From IMG/VR virus record IMGVR_UViG_3300035208_007487: a stretch of DNA of 64,000 nucleotides. The stretch is one strand, 5' to 3'. The notes under the pieces are model-generated. The model saw only the letters and a program-made list of their open reading frames with translations. It was not told where the DNA came from and made no database searches. A program made the translations under genes and the position numbers. This DNA comes from a virus (lineage: Duplodnaviria; Caudoviricetes). Shown piece by piece: positions 15,838 to 60,986 of this stretch (its first letter is position 1; each line of letters begins with the position of its first letter).

Positions 15838-15916
15838 TTGAATACTCTTTAGTAAATTAGATTTGAACAGGTAAATGAGAAGGAAGCTAGATAACTTCCT
15901 TCCCTGATAGTTTCTT

Positions 15917-16141
15917 TTATTGGTGGTCCATATAAGAAACAGTTGCGCCGCATCCTTCCGGGACATTGGCGGCGATCATGTCGCGGGTATCGACGTATGC
16001 CACTTCCACGGGCTTCACAAGCTTGGATTCACGGGCCGAAGCGTCGAAGGTGGAAGCGGAAATCGCAGGGACGTTGACGGCCTTCGGAGCGGTGCGACCG
16101 TCGAGAGCGAGCAGCGAGAGAGCGATCATGAGCGTATCCAT
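15917..16141 (-). CDS. small GC-rich early protein
   Basis: Start MDTLMIALSLL downstream of TTGACA-N17-TATCTT (16196-16224); markedly higher GC than flanks. Confidence 0.65.
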   Translation of the reverse strand: MDTLMIALSLLALDGRTAPKAVNVPAISASTFDASARESKLVKPVEVAYVDTRDMIAANVPEGCGATVSYMDHQ

Positions 16142-16280
16142 TTGAGTATCTTTCTTTTTGAAGGGGAGCAACATTGCCCGTCCCTTATGTTATATAAGAT
16201 AATGCCAAAAATTAGCCATGTCAAGAGGTTGACTAAAAAAACATGAAAAAAGTTTGTTCTGCAAATTAGTGAAGAACATG

Positions 16281-16359
16281 AAAATAATTCCAAAATTTAG
16301 TCTAGCCAATCAGTCCAGTCTATACTAAATTCCAAGTATATACATAAAGGAATAATAGA
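16281..16359 (+). repeat. conserved ~80-bp intergenic element, copy 1 of 8
   Basis: AAAATAATTCCAAAATTTAG..T[AT]GC[AC]AATCAGT[CT]CAGTCTATACTAAATT.CAAGTATATAC..AAAGGAATAATAGA. Confidence 0.9.
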
Positions 16360-16416
16360 TATCTCACTCCATTAATAGCTCAAAAAGAATGGGGGAATAA
16401 TCGCTCCCCCAATATA

Positions 16417-17841
16417 TTAAGGATTGATTATGAATAGTTCATTTTTGGAACGAGTTATTGCCACATACCAAAGATTTCTTTCTTCTTGTTCTGAATGAGA
16501 ATAAGTATCGGCAAGAACATAAACAGTATCCGATTCTAATCCTTTGGCTTTATGAGTAGTAGAAAGCATAATAGCAGATTTATCATTTACATCCGAGAAT
16601 AGATTTTTAATGTTATCAATTAATTCATTTTTAGATTTACAATTACTTCCAATTATTCTAAGACATTGTGCCTTATCTTCAATCATATCCGTTTTGGGAT
16701 TAGCTATTCTTTTTTTAAGTCTAATTATTTCTTCATTTTCCCAATCATTAACATATTGAATGAATTCGGAATAATCTTCTTTGAAATTATTAACAACATT
16801 TAATAAGCCTTCACCGTAATCCTTTCCTCGAATCATTGCTTTTTTACCTTGAGATATGAACCCAAAAATAAGAGAAGCTAATGGAGCATTTTTTCTTGAC
16901 AATATGAAACTACCAGCACTTGCATTTTCTTTCATATATTCATAGTTTTCATATACAATAGAACCATCTATTGCATTAGGGGCGGCACTAAATTCAGGTA
17001 CATCCTTTGAGGCTAGTTCACAAATCAACTTAGGGCACCTATATGAAACAGAAAGAGGATATTCTTTAGCAGACATCTTTTCCTTGAAGATATCCATAGC
17101 ACCCGTAGCTGCTCCCCTGAAGCCATAGATAGCTTGAGCAGGATCCCCCACTACACAAATACGCCCATTTGTTTTAACCATTCGGCAAATGAATTCAATT
17201 TGGGCTTTATTAAAATCTTGTGATTCATCTCCAAAGACCCAATCAAATTTTGGAATAGAAAGATCTTGAACAACTGGCATATAAATCATATCATCAAAAT
17301 CAATATAGGAAGTCATTTCTTTTGAGATATTTAATGTGCGGAGAATCATTTGGACAAATATATCAAAAGAAAGACCAGAATCTTTATCTGAATAATTAAT
17401 GTCGAATTCCTCACAAATGGAATAAATATCCTCAATTGATTCGGCTAGATATGCTTTTGCTAATGAGACTGCCTTGTAAGCGGGGCCAAAAAAATTGCTT
17501 GGAAGATCTTTATAGGTTTCATTTAGAATCTTCCTAGTCTTATCATGCGAGCCATGAGCACAAAAGACCCTACCATAGGCCTTTCTAAGCACACCGAAGC
17601 CCGTTGAATGCAAGGTGGCTACTTTGATATGTCTATCTGTAGGGACTCTTGATTCAATCTCTTGAACAATAGCTTTTGCGAATGCTACAAAAGCTACTTT
17701 GTCAGTAGGTTTAGTATAGTCTAATGCTCCAATCAGTGTAGTAGTTTTGCCACTACCGGCTAGTGCTCTGATTTGAATGTGCCCGCTGCCATTTGCTATA
17801 GCGTCATAAATGTTGGCTTGCGGAATAGATGGTTCAAGCAT
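16417..17841 (-). CDS. UvrD/Rep-like SF1A helicase
   Basis: Motifs ALAGSGKTT, TLHS, DESQD, VGDPAQAIYGFRGA, SYRCP, STTHKAKGLE, YVAITRSK. Confidence 0.92.
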   Translation of the reverse strand: MLEPSIPQANIYDAIANGSGHIQIRALAGSGKTTTLIGALDYTKPTDKVAFVAFAKAIVQEIESRVPTDRHIKVATLHSTGFGVLRKAYGRVFCAHGSHDKTRKILNETYKDLPSNFFGPAYKAVSLAKAYLAESIEDIYSICEEFDINYSDKDSGLSFDIFVQMILRTLNISKEMTSYIDFDDMIYMPVVQDLSIPKFDWVFGDESQDFNKAQIEFICRMVKTNGRICVVGDPAQAIYGFRGAATGAMDIFKEKMSAKEYPLSVSYRCPKLICELASKDVPEFSAAPNAIDGSIVYENYEYMKENASAGSFILSRKNAPLASLIFGFISQGKKAMIRGKDYGEGLLNVVNNFKEDYSEFIQYVNDWENEEIIRLKKRIANPKTDMIEDKAQCLRIIGSNCKSKNELIDNIKNLFSDVNDKSAIMLSTTHKAKGLESDTVYVLADTYSHSEQEERNLWYVAITRSKNELFIINP

Positions 17842-49368: not shown

Positions 49369-50954
49369 TCATTTTTTCCTTATATCAGTTAACACATCTT
49401 TAAAATATTCCAATATTGTACCATCATCTGTAGTATATATAACAGTCTTATCGTTTGGAGATACCACAACATCCATTACATGTTTACAATACGCATGGCC
49501 ATTTTGTATATACCTAATATTAGGTATTCCATGAAGTCTATATATATCAGAACTTTGCCCACTAATCTTAGACGTAAAAAATGGGCTATGTATAGATAGT
49601 TTAGCCAAAGAAATGCCAGTAACAATTCCAGCCAAAGTTATTAATATTATTTTATACTTACTCATCAATCGTTGTTTAATTCAATTGTAACATTACTAGC
49701 TAAATCTTCAAAAGATTCCATTATCCAATTTTGACCAGCTTCACCAATTGCATGATATTTATTTGGAATAATAACTACGCCCATTCCTCTTGATAAATCT
49801 CGATTCGATCTAATATCAATGGCTGTCATTAGCACTATTAAATCACTTTTTGCATCTTTCATCAATTTTGGGAAAGGTAATTCTTTAGCCTGACTCTCAG
49901 CATTATCTTTTATTCTTGCTTTCATTAGTTTCTTCCTTGTTTTTAATTGTTGCTTAATTCAATTGTAACATTACTATCTAAATCTGCAAAATTATCCATA
50001 TACCAATTTTCTTCAAATTCACCAATAGGATGAATATTTGAATTATTTGTTGCCACTACATAACCAATTCCTATTACCCGATCTGAGCTTGATTGATTTG
50101 CTTTAATTCCAGTCATCAATACTACTACGATATAATGATCCGACTTAAATTTCATTAATTTAGGGAATTCAGACACTTTAGCTATACTTTTGTCATTAAT
50201 TATTGATTTCATTTATAGCCTTCTTGTTCATTTTTTCTAAGCAATTACTTATAAGTGAGGATTCTAATTCTTCAGTCATTTTCATTACTATTTCATTTTC
50301 AATATCTATATGCTTTTCTACTACATGAGGTATTATTTCATCTTTGGTATTTACCAAATAATGTTTATATACTTCAATTGCGCCCATCAAGCGATAAGCA
50401 TTCCTGATATATGATTTTTCATCTTTCCAATAATCTAAACTAGCATCATACTTAATATAAAATAATGCATTTACTAATTCATGCAGTTCTTTGACAGTTG
50501 GAATTGCCTGAATATCCCAACCACCTTTAGTTACATCTATTCTATCATTTCCAAAATTAGTGCCATGAACTAAATACAATTCTTCAGTACCATCATCCAA
50601 TTGAACTTCTATTCCACCTGTACTGCAATCTCTATAGAAATCGAAATGCTTGATTTTCATTTAATGTAGGTCCATTTGAAGTTGAAGATTTAAAATAGAT
50701 TCTTCAGTTGTTTCACTAATATCATTACAATTAGTTACATAAAATTCACATAATTCATCAATATCATATAGCATAACTTCGTTTACTAGATATATTACAT
50801 ATTCATTATTACTATATTTTAGAGCTTTTTCAACTATTCCTTTTCCATAAAAACCATGCAAGTAATAGATAATCTCATCACCATTACTTAGCGCACTCAC
50901 TTTTTTGAACATTGTTAGCTCTTTCTTTATTGTATTGTTCCAATGGACTACCAA
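49369..50954 (-). CDS. small hypothetical genes, including FPKLMK paralogs 49665-49925 and 49943-50212
   Basis: ORF track; the paralogs share C-terminal DL.SNVTIEL. Confidence 0.6.
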
Positions 50955-51681: not shown

Positions 51682-52035
51682 TATCTAATCTCCTTTGGAT
51701 TTAGTATTTTTAATCCATTCAATAGTTTCTTCTTTAATCAATCTTTGAATTTTATTATGACGGTATTCAAATCCTTTTTCTTCAGCAATATTTAACTCAA
51801 CTAATTGTAATATTTCTTTGGCTAGCAGAGTATCTTTATTTTTAAAATATTCTATATAATAAGGATATAAGTAATCTCTTATTATTTGATGATTGTGAAT
51901 ATTAAATAAAGCTTTTTTGCTAATTTGTGGGGCCATTAATAATTATTTAACAATAATTAAAACATTTTAATAATTTATAAAAAGACTATATAAAATCCTA
52001 ATAGATCAGCCTAATCTCAAATAGTTCTAGTAATG

Positions 52036-53325
52036 CTAAATAATAGTATACATAGCATTAAATTCTTGTTTCATAGACGAGCACTGTTCCGTAAGAAACT
52101 GTAACCTCTCATCTCCACAAGCATAACTTTGGCTGGAACTCAGCCTAGTTGCAGTTTCCCGCAAATGTTTATCCATCAACCATAGGGCATAATATTGTAG
52201 ATTTTTAGCAGCGTTAACATCGCGATCATGATGCACTCCACAATTGCTACAAGTCCATTCTCTATCTGACAGTTTCAATTCGTTATGTTTATGCCCGCAA
52301 ACACTACAATACCTAGAAGAAGCATAGAAGGTAGGAGCCATTATTAAATGGATTCCAGCCCAGCTACATTTATACTTCAAAGTATCTCTAATTTTACCAA
52401 AAGAAGAATCTAAAATAGAACTGGCTAATTTATGATTTTTGGACATATTTTTTGGTTTTAATGTTTCAATAACAATGACTTTTGGCTTGGCTTTTACCAA
52501 AGAACTTGCCAATTTATGCACAGCATCATTGCGGATATCCGCAACTTTCTTGTGAACTCTTGACAATCTTGTTATTGCTTTCTTTCTATTGGTACTTCCT
52601 TTAACTCTTCTAGATACCATTCTTTGATATCGTTGAAGTTTCTTTAAATGACTCTTGTATGCTTTCGGATTGTTAAATGCCTCACCTTCACTAGTAATCG
52701 CTAACTCTTTGATTCCTAAATCTACACCTAGAATATCATTAGTTTCTATTTCGCTAATTGGAGCCAACTCAGGGGCTTCAATATCTTCTTTTATTAAAAA
52801 TGAAACAAACCATCTATCTGCTTGGCGTGATACTGTTGCTTGACTTAATTTTAATTTCCCTTCTTGTATTGGATAATTCTTCTCCTTTAATCTAATCTTG
52901 CCTAATATTGGTAATTGAGCATAATTAGATGCAATATATATTGAACCTGTTAATCTAAATGAATCTTTATTTCCCTTTTTCTTAAATTTTGGATAATCTG
53001 ACTTTTTAGTGAAAAATTGTTTAAAAGCATATTCTAAGTCTCTTAATGATTCCTGGCCGCAGCATTTAGACACTTCACGAATCCAAGGAAACTCATTTTT
53101 GAGCAAGACCCATTCTTTGTGCCAATCTTGAGCATTGCCTAAAGTGCAGGGAATTTTAGGCAAATCATACATTATAGCTAAAGATTTATTAGCTTCATAT
53201 TCTCTAATAAGTTTGTCTAATTCCCAATTATATGCATAACGACTAATTCCAGCACTTTTAGCACATAAAGCTTTTTGACTATTATTGATTTTTAATTCAA
53301 TCTTATAACTGTGCATTCTAATCAT
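52036..53325 (-). CDS. tnpB: TnpB RNA-guided nuclease without adjacent TnpA
   Basis: GVDLGIK, VIETL, CSVCG/CSNCG, HDRDVNAAKN; the 3' end overlaps an omegaRNA-like scaffold. Confidence 0.95.
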   Translation of the reverse strand: MIRMHSYKIELKINNSQKALCAKSAGISRYAYNWELDKLIREYEANKSLAIMYDLPKIPCTLGNAQDWHKEWVLLKNEFPWIREVSKCCGQESLRDLEYAFKQFFTKKSDYPKFKKKGNKDSFRLTGSIYIASNYAQLPILGKIRLKEKNYPIQEGKLKLSQATVSRQADRWFVSFLIKEDIEAPELAPISEIETNDILGVDLGIKELAITSEGEAFNNPKAYKSHLKKLQRYQRMVSRRVKGSTNRKKAITRLSRVHKKVADIRNDAVHKLASSLVKAKPKVIVIETLKPKNMSKNHKLASSILDSSFGKIRDTLKYKCSWAGIHLIMAPTFYASSRYCSVCGHKHNELKLSDREWTCSNCGVHHDRDVNAAKNLQYYALWLMDKHLRETATRLSSSQSYACGDERLQFLTEQCSSMKQEFNAMYTII

Positions 53326-53436
53326 TTTATATTATTTGCCCATTATTTTTTTGTATAAAATTTATTTATACCATCAAACTCCCACTGAATTTTAACTCAG
53401 TATTGTAATATTAACATATTTAGATAAATAATAGAT

Positions 53437-54135
53437 ATGTTTTTGCATGAGTTCCCTGCCTCAATAAAGTCGCAAACTCCTTTCAATTTAGTTATATCTA
53501 ACAGAGTTAAAACTATTACATTACCTATTCCTAAGTTTACCATCAATTCTAATTTAATATCTTCAAATAATTTAAATATACTTTTTACAACTCCTTACAA
53601 AGAACAAGAATTATTCAAAACATTTAATGCCTCAGAAATAGAATATTTAATAACCAGAATAACTGCTGTTTTATCTAATATAAATCTTCCAGAAAATATA
53701 TCAATATATCACTATGATCAAATATTTAACAATAATCTATTTAAATCATATAAACACTATACTAAATTAACTCATATTATTGCTAGCAATAATCAAATTT
53801 ATCCAATATATGAAAAAAATGATATAATAATAACTGAACCATCTCTAGTAATAGATGAATTAAATAGCAAAAAACTCATTAACAAAATTGCTAATGAAGT
53901 TTCAAATTCACTTATATTCATTAAAATAAAGCGGGATAACTTAACAAACATAAGTCACATATTTGGAGTATTATCACAAGTAGCTAATATATTAAATTAT
54001 GATGACTATGATAAAATATTTGCAATAAACCTTAAACAACCTATTGATCTATATGGAGTGCTCACTCAATCGGGTGTTAATAGCTCATTGGCAGTTATTG
54101 ATAGATCTAATGAATTATTTGAATTCCTACAATAA
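53437..54135 (+). CDS. hypothetical protein (late-type promoter)
   Basis: TAAATA-N6-ATG. Confidence 0.7.
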   Translation: MFLHEFPASIKSQTPFNLVISNRVKTITLPIPKFTINSNLISSNNLNILFTTPYKEQELFKTFNASEIEYLITRITAVLSNINLPENISIYHYDQIFNNNLFKSYKHYTKLTHIIASNNQIYPIYEKNDIIITEPSLVIDELNSKKLINKIANEVSNSLIFIKIKRDNLTNISHIFGVLSQVANILNYDDYDKIFAINLKQPIDLYGVLTQSGVNSSLAVIDRSNELFEFLQ

Positions 54136-60291: not shown

Positions 60292-60362
60292 AAATAGTAT
60301 ATAATGCCTTTTAATATGAAAGTATAGACAATCTACCATTCCCACCTAAAGGATCTATACCT
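60288..60362 (+). pseudogene. decayed copy of the 5' end of 12612..13118
   Basis: MKIVYNAF*YESIDNLPFPPKGSIP; TATGAAAGTATAGACAATCTACCATT identical to the 12612 gene. Confidence 0.85.
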
Positions 60363-60488
60363 ACAGCCCATATTCCAATTTTTTCTACTTTTAAAGGCAT
60401 CAAAGATCAGCTAGATAGTTTTACTCAACCTGTTGGATTGATTTGGGTAATTGCTGCATATGATTCAATTAACCATATTATATTAATG

Positions 60489-60934
60489 GGTTCGTAGCAG
60501 CACATTAATCTCTAAATAAAAGTATGCAAAGTTATGTAAAAAGGATATAAATTTGCATATTTTTAATTTTAATGAAAAAATAAGATATTTGCAGTAATTT
60601 TTTGTTATACTTAATATTAGATGAAGAGGCGGTTGTAAGACCGCCACATCAAGCAAAAACCACGCTTGATGATTCAACATCTGATTGTTGGCCAATGGCC
60701 AACAGCCCCGACTAGAAATAGTCAAAGAGTTGTGTAAATACAACAATTGTACTTGAAAAACAGTACTGGATACGGGAAGTTCTCCCGGAATCCGGCTTTG
60801 CCTAGGCAAAGCCTAACGCTTGCAGAGATCGGAGGTTTCAGTTTGGTGAAAGTCAAACAGTGCGGGTCGTTGAAGCAAGAAATCAAAAGTACAAAATCAG
60901 GCTTGCCTAGTTTTGCACACTTTTGGTGGAACGG
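60489..60934 (+). mobile_element. non-autonomous IS607-like mini-element carrying a stand-alone omegaRNA-like scaffold
   Basis: GG-bounded (TGGG|TTCGTAGCAG ... GGTGGAACGG); 60771-60885 is homologous to the 3' end of TnpB 52036; extended -10 TGTTATACT at 60603; no TnpA or TnpB ORF. Confidence 0.7.
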
Positions 60935-60986
60935 TTATCTTCCCATTTTATGATTAGTTTAATTTCACTCATGTTATCTCCTATTC

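Follow-up and report, generated by a model that had tools for sequence, protein, structure and literature searches.

A protein-less IS607-type element with a structured, omegaRNA-like scaffold in a probable giant phage

Introduction

Guide RNAs that are carried by a transposon without its nuclease gene have been described in the IS200/IS605 family, in which PATEs encode omegaRNAs that need TnpB in trans (Meers et al. 2023, PMC10055086); until now, such protein-less guide-RNA elements have been noted only for these PATEs. Within the IS607 family, the CboIStron element has a TGGG target-adjacent motif (TAM) that is also the target of its TnpA, a GG core, and a CGG-terminated scaffold (Zedaveinyte et al., bioRxiv 10.1101/2023.11.20.567912). 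Its TnpB is fully active with omegaRNA supplied in trans, and approximately 40 bp of left end (LE) together with 60 bp of right end (RE) suffice for excision (10.1101/2023.11.20.567912). IS607 TnpBs of the ISFba1 type use a RAGATH-18-derived reRNA, with GAGGG as one of two measured TAMs, and 36% of RAGATH-18 RNAs do not adjoin an IS607 TnpB (Cell Res 2024, PMC11061315). A further comparison is offered by SegB of phage T4, cited in PMC13565253 as a homing nuclease of the tRNA region.

The cassette described here resembles PATEs in being protein-less and non-autonomous, in sharing its ends with TnpB-coding siblings, and in carrying an omegaRNA for a TnpB encoded elsewhere. It differs in having IS607-like ends (both junctions carry GG, the flank reads NGGG, and inverted repeats lie subterminally), whereas the Y1-type palindromic subterminal hairpins of PATEs are absent from it, in an added conserved RNA module of about 150 nt with its own -10 box, and in its setting, which is a probable giant phage and often a tRNA array. 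With CboIStron it has in common the G-rich TAM-like flank, the GG core and the CGG scaffold end; however, no group I intron was detected, neither tnpA nor tnpB lies inside it, and it is a natural element of only 444 bp, whereas the published mini-IS is an engineered construct. The conserved core with its closing stem and ..UGAAGCAAGAA recalls the ISFba1 type, but the scaffold is approximately 315 nt rather than 187 nt, its RAGATH-18 score of 17.8 bits falls short of the gathering score (44.9), the core overlaps the C-terminal TnpB codons in the parents of the cassette, and the TnpBs concerned are nearer to ISDra2. As with SegB in the account cited above, the setting is that of large phages with a nuclease-driven, preferentially inherited tRNA-gene region, here with a LAGLIDADG gene in the same array; in contrast to SegB as described there, recognition would be RNA-guided and the guide gene would lie apart from the nuclease gene. 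TnpB-less omegaRNA elements are already known as PATEs; the present one is new in being of the IS607 type, in its additional, conserved 5′ RNA module and in its placement within phage tRNA arrays.

Genomic Context

The window, by which is meant the whole 64,000-nt stretch that was analyzed, corresponds to C18:128001-192000 of a metagenome bin (assembly G000) of 2.36 Mb in 194 contigs. The bin is mixed: 26 long contigs, together 1.24 Mb, have a GC content of 24-34%, and another 168, together 1.11 Mb, have one of 38-46%. It looks like a chimera in which the long, low-GC contigs resemble at least one giant phage and the 38-46% GC contigs are possibly the host. The window itself has a GC content of 31% and encodes two tRNAs, helicases and a sigma-factor-like gene product, its large open reading frames being mostly without family assignment; a search of the whole window against Rfam at gathering scores returned a tRNA as its sole match. 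Because the sister contig C172 carries 24 tRNAs and a tmRNA, and a related IMG/VR contig of 36 kb has a completeness rating of 12%, the replicon carrying the cassette is probably a giant phage. Metagenomes of 16 studies contain the stretch, their sources being landfill, groundwater, wastewater and aquatic habitats, and a comparison with GenBank phages gave no DNA match for either the cassette or the sequence around it. Elsewhere in the bin, contig C67 (34% GC) encodes six more tnpB genes of a different type, and the first 100 nucleotides of C172 (C172:1-100) are repeated at position 50220 of the same contig.

The 444-bp Element and Its Copies

The element spans window positions 60491-60934 on the positive strand (444 bp), encodes no protein, and lies between a left edge TGGG| and a right edge GAACGG|. 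The TGGG flank (60487-60490, positive strand) is a TAM-like target motif in which GG is the putative crossover dinucleotide. Five copies are present in the assembly: the window copy, C18:205458-205904 (96% identical to the window copy), C172:64711-65159 (95%), C172:60616-61017 (74%) and C172:54095-54530 (71%). In the other four, homology is lost left of G60488 and right of G60934 and the flanks are unrelated, so that the GG-bounded edges proposed in the first-pass annotation prove to be exact. Further cassettes, which that annotation had left to be looked for, exist outside the bin as well, with at least nine copies recovered by pattern scans in eight other loci (one IMG/VR contig and seven metagenome loci).

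The GAACGG terminus is invariant across all copies and is followed directly by divergence, the right flank being different at every insertion site. On the left, NGGG precedes 11 of 12 distinct cassette insertions (three GAGGG and three TGGG among them) and both full TnpB elements described below, the twelfth cassette being preceded by TAGG. The GG core is identical at both junctions (left ..GG|G, right ..CGG|) at all 12 cassette sites and in both full elements, and a G-rich TAM-like motif abuts the LE while the scaffold ends in ..CGG, the arrangement of IS607 elements. With no conserved open reading frame, ends in common with a coding sibling, copies at multiple sites and precise insertion, the element also has the traits of MITE- and PATE-type transposons. 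A conserved peptide-coding frame beginning at the relic ATG was considered and rejected, since the frames vary among lineages and the codon is GTG in one copy. The earlier description of a stand-alone guide-RNA cassette without TnpB is therefore supported, as is that of a mobile, GG-bounded element whose guide comes from the right flank, the copy edges, the NGGG sites and a restored tRNA-Leu gene (below) attesting to present or past mobility.

A second, shorter type of protein-less cassette occurs on higher-GC metagenome contigs (L022:1150-1500 on the negative strand, L028:410-744 on the positive strand, L024 and L020), with the same GGG|..GAACGG| ends and core and without the 5′ module. Exact-pattern scans of IMG/VR with the promoter block and with hairpin Y (below) gave no match, and a lone pattern match among species-representative genomes was dismissed as chance, lying in coding DNA of 70% GC. 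One metagenomic cassette (L019:603-1044) joins an A-type left end to a B-type RNA body, a mosaic that suggests recombination between cassette subfamilies. In sequencing run X9, a contig tracks the left flank of the cassette (window 60322-60492) as far as ..GGGTT and continues with unrelated GAACGCTGTAATTC..; this departure at 60492 was considered as an empty site and rejected in favor of a variant arrangement in a relative.

Descent from TnpB-Encoding Elements

Two complete TnpB elements are found on C18, with tnpB at 15843-17168 and at 192289-193593, the latter gene beginning 289 bp, and its element lying 254 bp, beyond the window end. Both are preceded by AAGGG and have the right termini TAGAACGG. 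The left ends of both elements read GGG|T(T/A)AGTAGCTGCTCCAATAAATCTACGCAAA and can be aligned to that of the cassette up to TAGATGAAGA, the tnpB start codon included, and their right ends, TAGTTTTGCA..AGAACGG, align with its right end. In the window, the LE (60491-60545, positive strand) aligns with the sequences that precede the two tnpB genes (C18:17.2 kb and 193.7 kb), and the region comprising the 3′ hairpin, the RE and the scaffold terminus GAACGG (60884-60934, positive strand) is homologous to the RE at C18:15.8 kb and 192.3 kb. As the LE, RE and start-codon region match the full elements, the cassette is, by sequence alignment, an internal-replacement derivative of an IS607-type TnpB element in which tnpB has been swapped for about 150 nt of hairpins. 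An inverted AAATCTAYGCAAAACTA, a motif that occurs within the bin only in the known copies, is also common to the left and right ends, and in B- and C-type copies the LE holds AAATCTACGCAAA, an inverted repeat of the right end.

A profile built from cassette copies matched the 3′ ends of all four tnpB genes of C18 (E = 1.9e-12, 3.6e-10, 7.3e-7 and 2.5e-6), the last of these values belonging to tnpB 52036-53325 in the window. Positions 60818-60881 align with the negative-strand 3′ end of this gene (about 52127-52065), with the common motif string GCTTG..GAGAT..GAGGTT.CAGTTT..AACAGTGC..GTC..TGAA.CAAGAA, and the likeness to the RNA scaffold at this 3′ end, first noticed in the annotation, is thereby confirmed. 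The two full elements (C18:15.8 kb and 192.3 kb) are nonetheless the best match to the scaffold and both ends of the cassette, TnpB 52036 being a weaker one.

Structure of the RNA Scaffold

Consensus folding with RNAalifold on 12 sequences yields a chain of helices from GATGAAGAGG (60620) to GAACGG, a scaffold of approximately 315 nt. Over its 89 base pairs and the 12 sequences, 97.4% of cells are paired, and 31 of the 89 pairs are changed on both sides, compared with 15.2 ± 2.5 in shuffles (none of 500 reaching 31) and two to seven with the partners slid. G·U pairs outnumber A·C combinations 97 to 10, and this excess identifies the positive strand as the RNA. The cassette is under structural selection at the RNA level, on the positive strand, and the unusually long 5′ scaffold that had been claimed for it gains the support of these covarying pairs.

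The same counts bear on whether the cassette is an inert remnant, a decaying internal-deletion product of a TnpB element that is now functionless, which was the outcome that the first-pass annotation named as contrary to its proposal. The cassette has no protein, no proven transcript and no TnpA, and one base pair is broken in copy c3, all of which would suit such a remnant. Neutral decay, however, predicts broken pairs at the shuffled rate, whereas the 31 compensatory pairs are spread across lineages of about 70% identity from separate metagenomes, with termini, -10 box and loops invariant; an inert remnant is accordingly disfavored and seems to us highly improbable.

Upstream of the scaffold proper, an AT-rich stem-loop in the LE (TATTTTT..AAAAATA; 60558-60582, positive strand) has a covarying counterpart at the equivalent place in other lineages; copy c4 lacks it. 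The scaffold opens with the extra 5′ RNA module (60620-60768, positive strand), with covariation in helices 2, 3, 5, 6 and 8, which consists in order of a GATG/CATC stem, two hairpins in a junction, the conserved GATTCAACATCT, and four hairpins (60687-60703, 60710-60723, 60729-60744 and 60749-60766), the loops of which are mostly of the GNRA type. The short hairpins proposed earlier are thus real at 60628-60766 and covary across lineages. The module showed no likeness to tnpB or to other sequence in the assembly, and no Rfam family matched it.

The following segment (60768-60813, positive strand) holds hairpin Y (60773-60787, loop AGTTC) within a GGAT/ATCC stem, then hairpin Z (60794-60813). 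Hairpin Y is common to the 3′ ends of all four C18 TnpB genes and hairpin Z is found only in the cassette. The covariation previously claimed for this hairpin holds, with CGGGA-AGTTC-TCCCG in the cassette, GGCTG-AGTTC-CAGCC in TnpB 52036 and CGGTG-AGTTC-CACCG in the TnpB at C18:192 kb, the loop being invariant and the stem covarying. The complementarity of the loop GUUC to the terminal GAAC suggests a pseudoknot, and the variants of relatives, GUUU/GAAC and GUUC/GAAU, keep this putative pairing by means of wobbles.

The conserved omegaRNA core (60818-60881, positive strand), the part that aligns with the TnpB 3′ ends, is weakly RAGATH-18-like (Rfam RF03064, E = 1.8 at the score given above); by sequence it resembles RAGATH-18 and, being below the gathering score, is not a member. 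Besides this match, the search of the cassette against Rfam at E <= 10 returned noise, with no intron and no ribozyme, and six related loci searched at E <= 1 returned tRNA, tmRNA and noise only, with no RAGATH-18. As in other omegaRNAs, the structured scaffold ends at the transposon RE and the guide would come from the flank.

Promoter and Expression

The putative promoter of the RNA is a -10-like box, TGnTATACT (60603-60611, positive strand), which is the extended -10 TGTTATACT recognized earlier and is conserved as TATACT, TACAAT, TATAAT or TACAGT. The TAnnnT box is present in all lineages and is preceded by TG in most; it generally lies 5-6 nt before the first RNA stem (TAGATGAAGAGG), with a 24-nt insertion at this point in copies m30 and m26. 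No -35 box was found at the cassette and a simple sigma-70 scan calls no promoter there. Stem-loops upstream of the -10 box covary too, so transcription may start further upstream and, given the missing -35 box, read-through from upstream is also possible. The shorter cassette type has a sigma-70-like promoter, TTGACA-17-TATCTT, at the same place directly upstream of its scaffold. Contigs from three RNA libraries overlap parts of the element at a depth of only about 2x, for which DNA carry-over or relatives are possible sources; one of them, X20, runs on into a TnpB-type hairpin and therefore derives from a relative.

TnpB Partners, the Search for TnpA and Predicted Guides

Within the window, tnpB 52036-53325 (negative strand) encodes a 429-aa protein with matches to the Pfam OrfB_IS605, Cas12f1-like TNB and HTH domains and an intact RuvC D-E-D triad, D191, E278 and D361 being kept in alignment to ISDra2 TnpB, and is a possible partner in trans. 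Its omegaRNA-like 3′ region (52022-52160, negative strand) ends in TAGAAC-TA rather than GAACGG, the right end TAGAACTA is without a GG core, and no left end is recognizable upstream (53326-53700, negative strand), such that this gene looks immobilized. A second tnpB, cut by the window start (3-1169, negative strand), encodes a product 79% identical to TnpB 52036 and likewise has no recognizable LE; both genes keep the scaffold core, the right end being TAGAACTA in tnpB 52036 and GAATCGG in this second gene. The four C18 TnpBs (15.8, 128, 180 and 192 kb) are 73-79% identical, all with RuvC D-E-D, and are nearer in sequence to ISDra2 of the IS605 family than to the solved IS607 TnpB; their relatives in GenBank phages have at most 41% identity. 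The parent elements thus combine a RuvC-intact TnpB with a 3′ omegaRNA, the core of which overlaps the C-terminal TnpB codons.

No cognate serine-recombinase TnpA was found among the three resolvase-domain genes of the assembly, which is incomplete. One of the three, on contig C25, is IS607-like, and the ends associated with it are unrelated to those of the cassette. It forms part of an IS607-type pair at the contig end (L016, C25:1-2611), in which a 197-aa serine recombinase with an N-terminal HTH is followed by the start of a tnpB-like open reading frame, and the region upstream of the pair is unrelated to the cassette ends. TnpB relatives in the metagenomic loci L021 and L031 have no adjoining TnpA. 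The L031 TnpB shares 50% identity with that of C18:192 kb, and directly upstream of it lie two overlapping fragments of RtcB, an RNA ligase (L031:53-906).

The copies diverge to the right of G60934, and the guide is therefore predicted to begin with TTATCTTCCC at 60935, immediately after the invariant GAACGG, in agreement with the guide start proposed earlier. The predicted guide, TTATCTTCCCATTTTATGAT (60935-60954, positive strand), is the right flank itself and differs from site to site. As the scaffold ends in CGG, here with an RE of ACGG, the end of the element would itself escape cutting. Nine guides (five of cassettes, two of full elements and two putative ones of the window TnpBs) were searched against the 2.36-Mb assembly, contigs of 40-46% GC included, and none had a second match flanked by NGGG; a few matches with 1-2 mismatches occur, all without an adjacent GGG. 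The guide matches that the annotation had suggested seeking thus yielded no second target in the bin, and selfish homing fits this outcome better than a dedicated two-component defense.

The annotation had further regarded the system as one of domesticated TnpBs, which the best matches of the scaffold and ends, to two TnpBs still in intact mobile elements rather than to TnpB 52036, do not support. Domestication could instead concern the guides, with fixed cassettes acting as a dispersed guide array that gives resident TnpBs selected guides against host or competing-phage DNA, or for gene repression. The two window TnpBs without transposon left ends, the promoter-like box owned by each cassette, the lack of a detected TnpA, and the presence of several cassettes in the tRNA region, where phage T4 keeps SegB according to the account cited above, are compatible with such guide genes. 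Each guide, however, is merely the flank of an NGGG insertion site, the absence of a second match in the assembly (guides of the four TnpBs included) argues against selected guides, the 95-96% identical copies indicate recent spread, and the element ends are intact, and we therefore regard domesticated guide genes as very unlikely.

Proposed Mode of Action

These observations are best accounted for, and in our view with good probability, by a non-autonomous, IS607-type element with an omegaRNA as its single gene, on which resident TnpBs draw in trans to bring about homing. The RNA of approximately 315 nt, extended by a guide of about 16-20 nt, would be transcribed either by read-through or from a -10-type promoter of its own, and its scaffold would be bound by one of the four C18 TnpBs, which are close relatives with intact catalytic residues. 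We infer that the resulting ribonucleoprotein cuts NGGG plus guide, that is, the same locus without the element, in co-infecting relatives or excised donors; recombinational repair would then copy the element into the cut locus, completing homing. Movement to new NGGG sites would require a serine-recombinase TnpA acting in trans. Against this reading stand the missing -35 box, the lack of a detected cognate TnpA, and the greater sequence similarity of the TnpBs to ISDra2 than to the solved IS607 TnpB. A simple homing model also leaves the 5′ module unexplained; the module may stabilize the RNA or aid its folding.

If this is correct, IS607-type transposons can lose both of their protein genes and survive as mobile genes for guide RNAs, relying on the TnpB of sister elements. 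The covariation-supported scaffold with its 5′ domain would also be an object for studies of omegaRNA stabilization, processing and loading, and the arrangement would represent a natural trans-guide design for compact genome editors.

Insertion into tRNA Genes

Removal of copy c5 (C172:54095-54530) between GAGGG and TTCAAGT restores exactly an 85-nt tRNA-Leu(CAA) gene, and c5 is therefore an insertion in the T-loop. The ARAGORN fold of this tRNA has a G53:A61 mismatch, which suggests decay of the gene. Seven of the 12 cassette sites lie in phage tRNA arrays, invariably on the tRNA strand, and the one-strand, phage-type array at C172:52796-64009 (L010, L012 and L013), comprising the 24 tRNAs and the tmRNA, holds three cassettes. 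At two further sites, v18 and m23, ARAGORN made no call after tRNA reconstruction, though the flanks are tRNA-like.

An insertion that is harmless in tRNA genes would be expected if the cassette were intron-like, a mini-IStron or new ribozyme in which the 5′ module and scaffold remove the element from host transcripts and guide-RNA function is secondary or competing, as in IS607 IStrons. The position of c5, the location of other copies in or beside tRNA-like sequence, the orientation of the array copies with the tRNAs, the many GNRA-type loops, an RNA ending in G, and the existence of IS607 IStrons with the same TGGG/CGG logic all speak for it. No group I intron core (Intron_gpI) or ribozyme family was detected at E <= 10 in the cassette or at E <= 1 in its relatives, however, and the scaffold is preceded by only about 270 nt, compared with an LE of 581 bp in the CboIStron construct. 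In addition, the copies are mostly intergenic and the conserved -10 box stands immediately before the first RNA stem. As no intron or ribozyme model fits and the split tRNA-Leu shows a mismatch suggestive of decay, an intron-like element is considered very unlikely.

Under the trans-acting omegaRNA reading, the placement of cassettes in the tRNA arrays of giant phages would offer a case in which RNA-guided homing from phage to phage can be tested. A broader version of it can be imagined, which we hold to be doubtful, whereby giant phages keep dispersed, separately transcribed guide genes that aim a few TnpBs at the uninterrupted alleles of co-infecting relatives, notably in the tRNA array, as an RNA-guided form of T4-type marker exclusion. 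The 5′ module would then be a new functional domain that might, for example, stabilize or process the RNA, help to load TnpB, or allow removal of the element from tRNA precursors.

A sixth copy was suspected at C172:59138 and rejected, the sequence being a remnant of a right-end junction only, beside a LAGLIDADG gene. In this region (C172:59118-59959), AAGAACGG|TTCAAGTCCCTCTTTGCGCA resembles a right-end junction joined to a tRNA 3′ fragment and is identical to the guide of c5 at 18 of 20 positions. The remnant lies directly 3′ of an open reading frame for a 257-aa protein resembling HTH- and LAGLIDADG-containing homing endonucleases (L012:71-844), and a single tRNA site on C172 may have brought together homing elements of two kinds.
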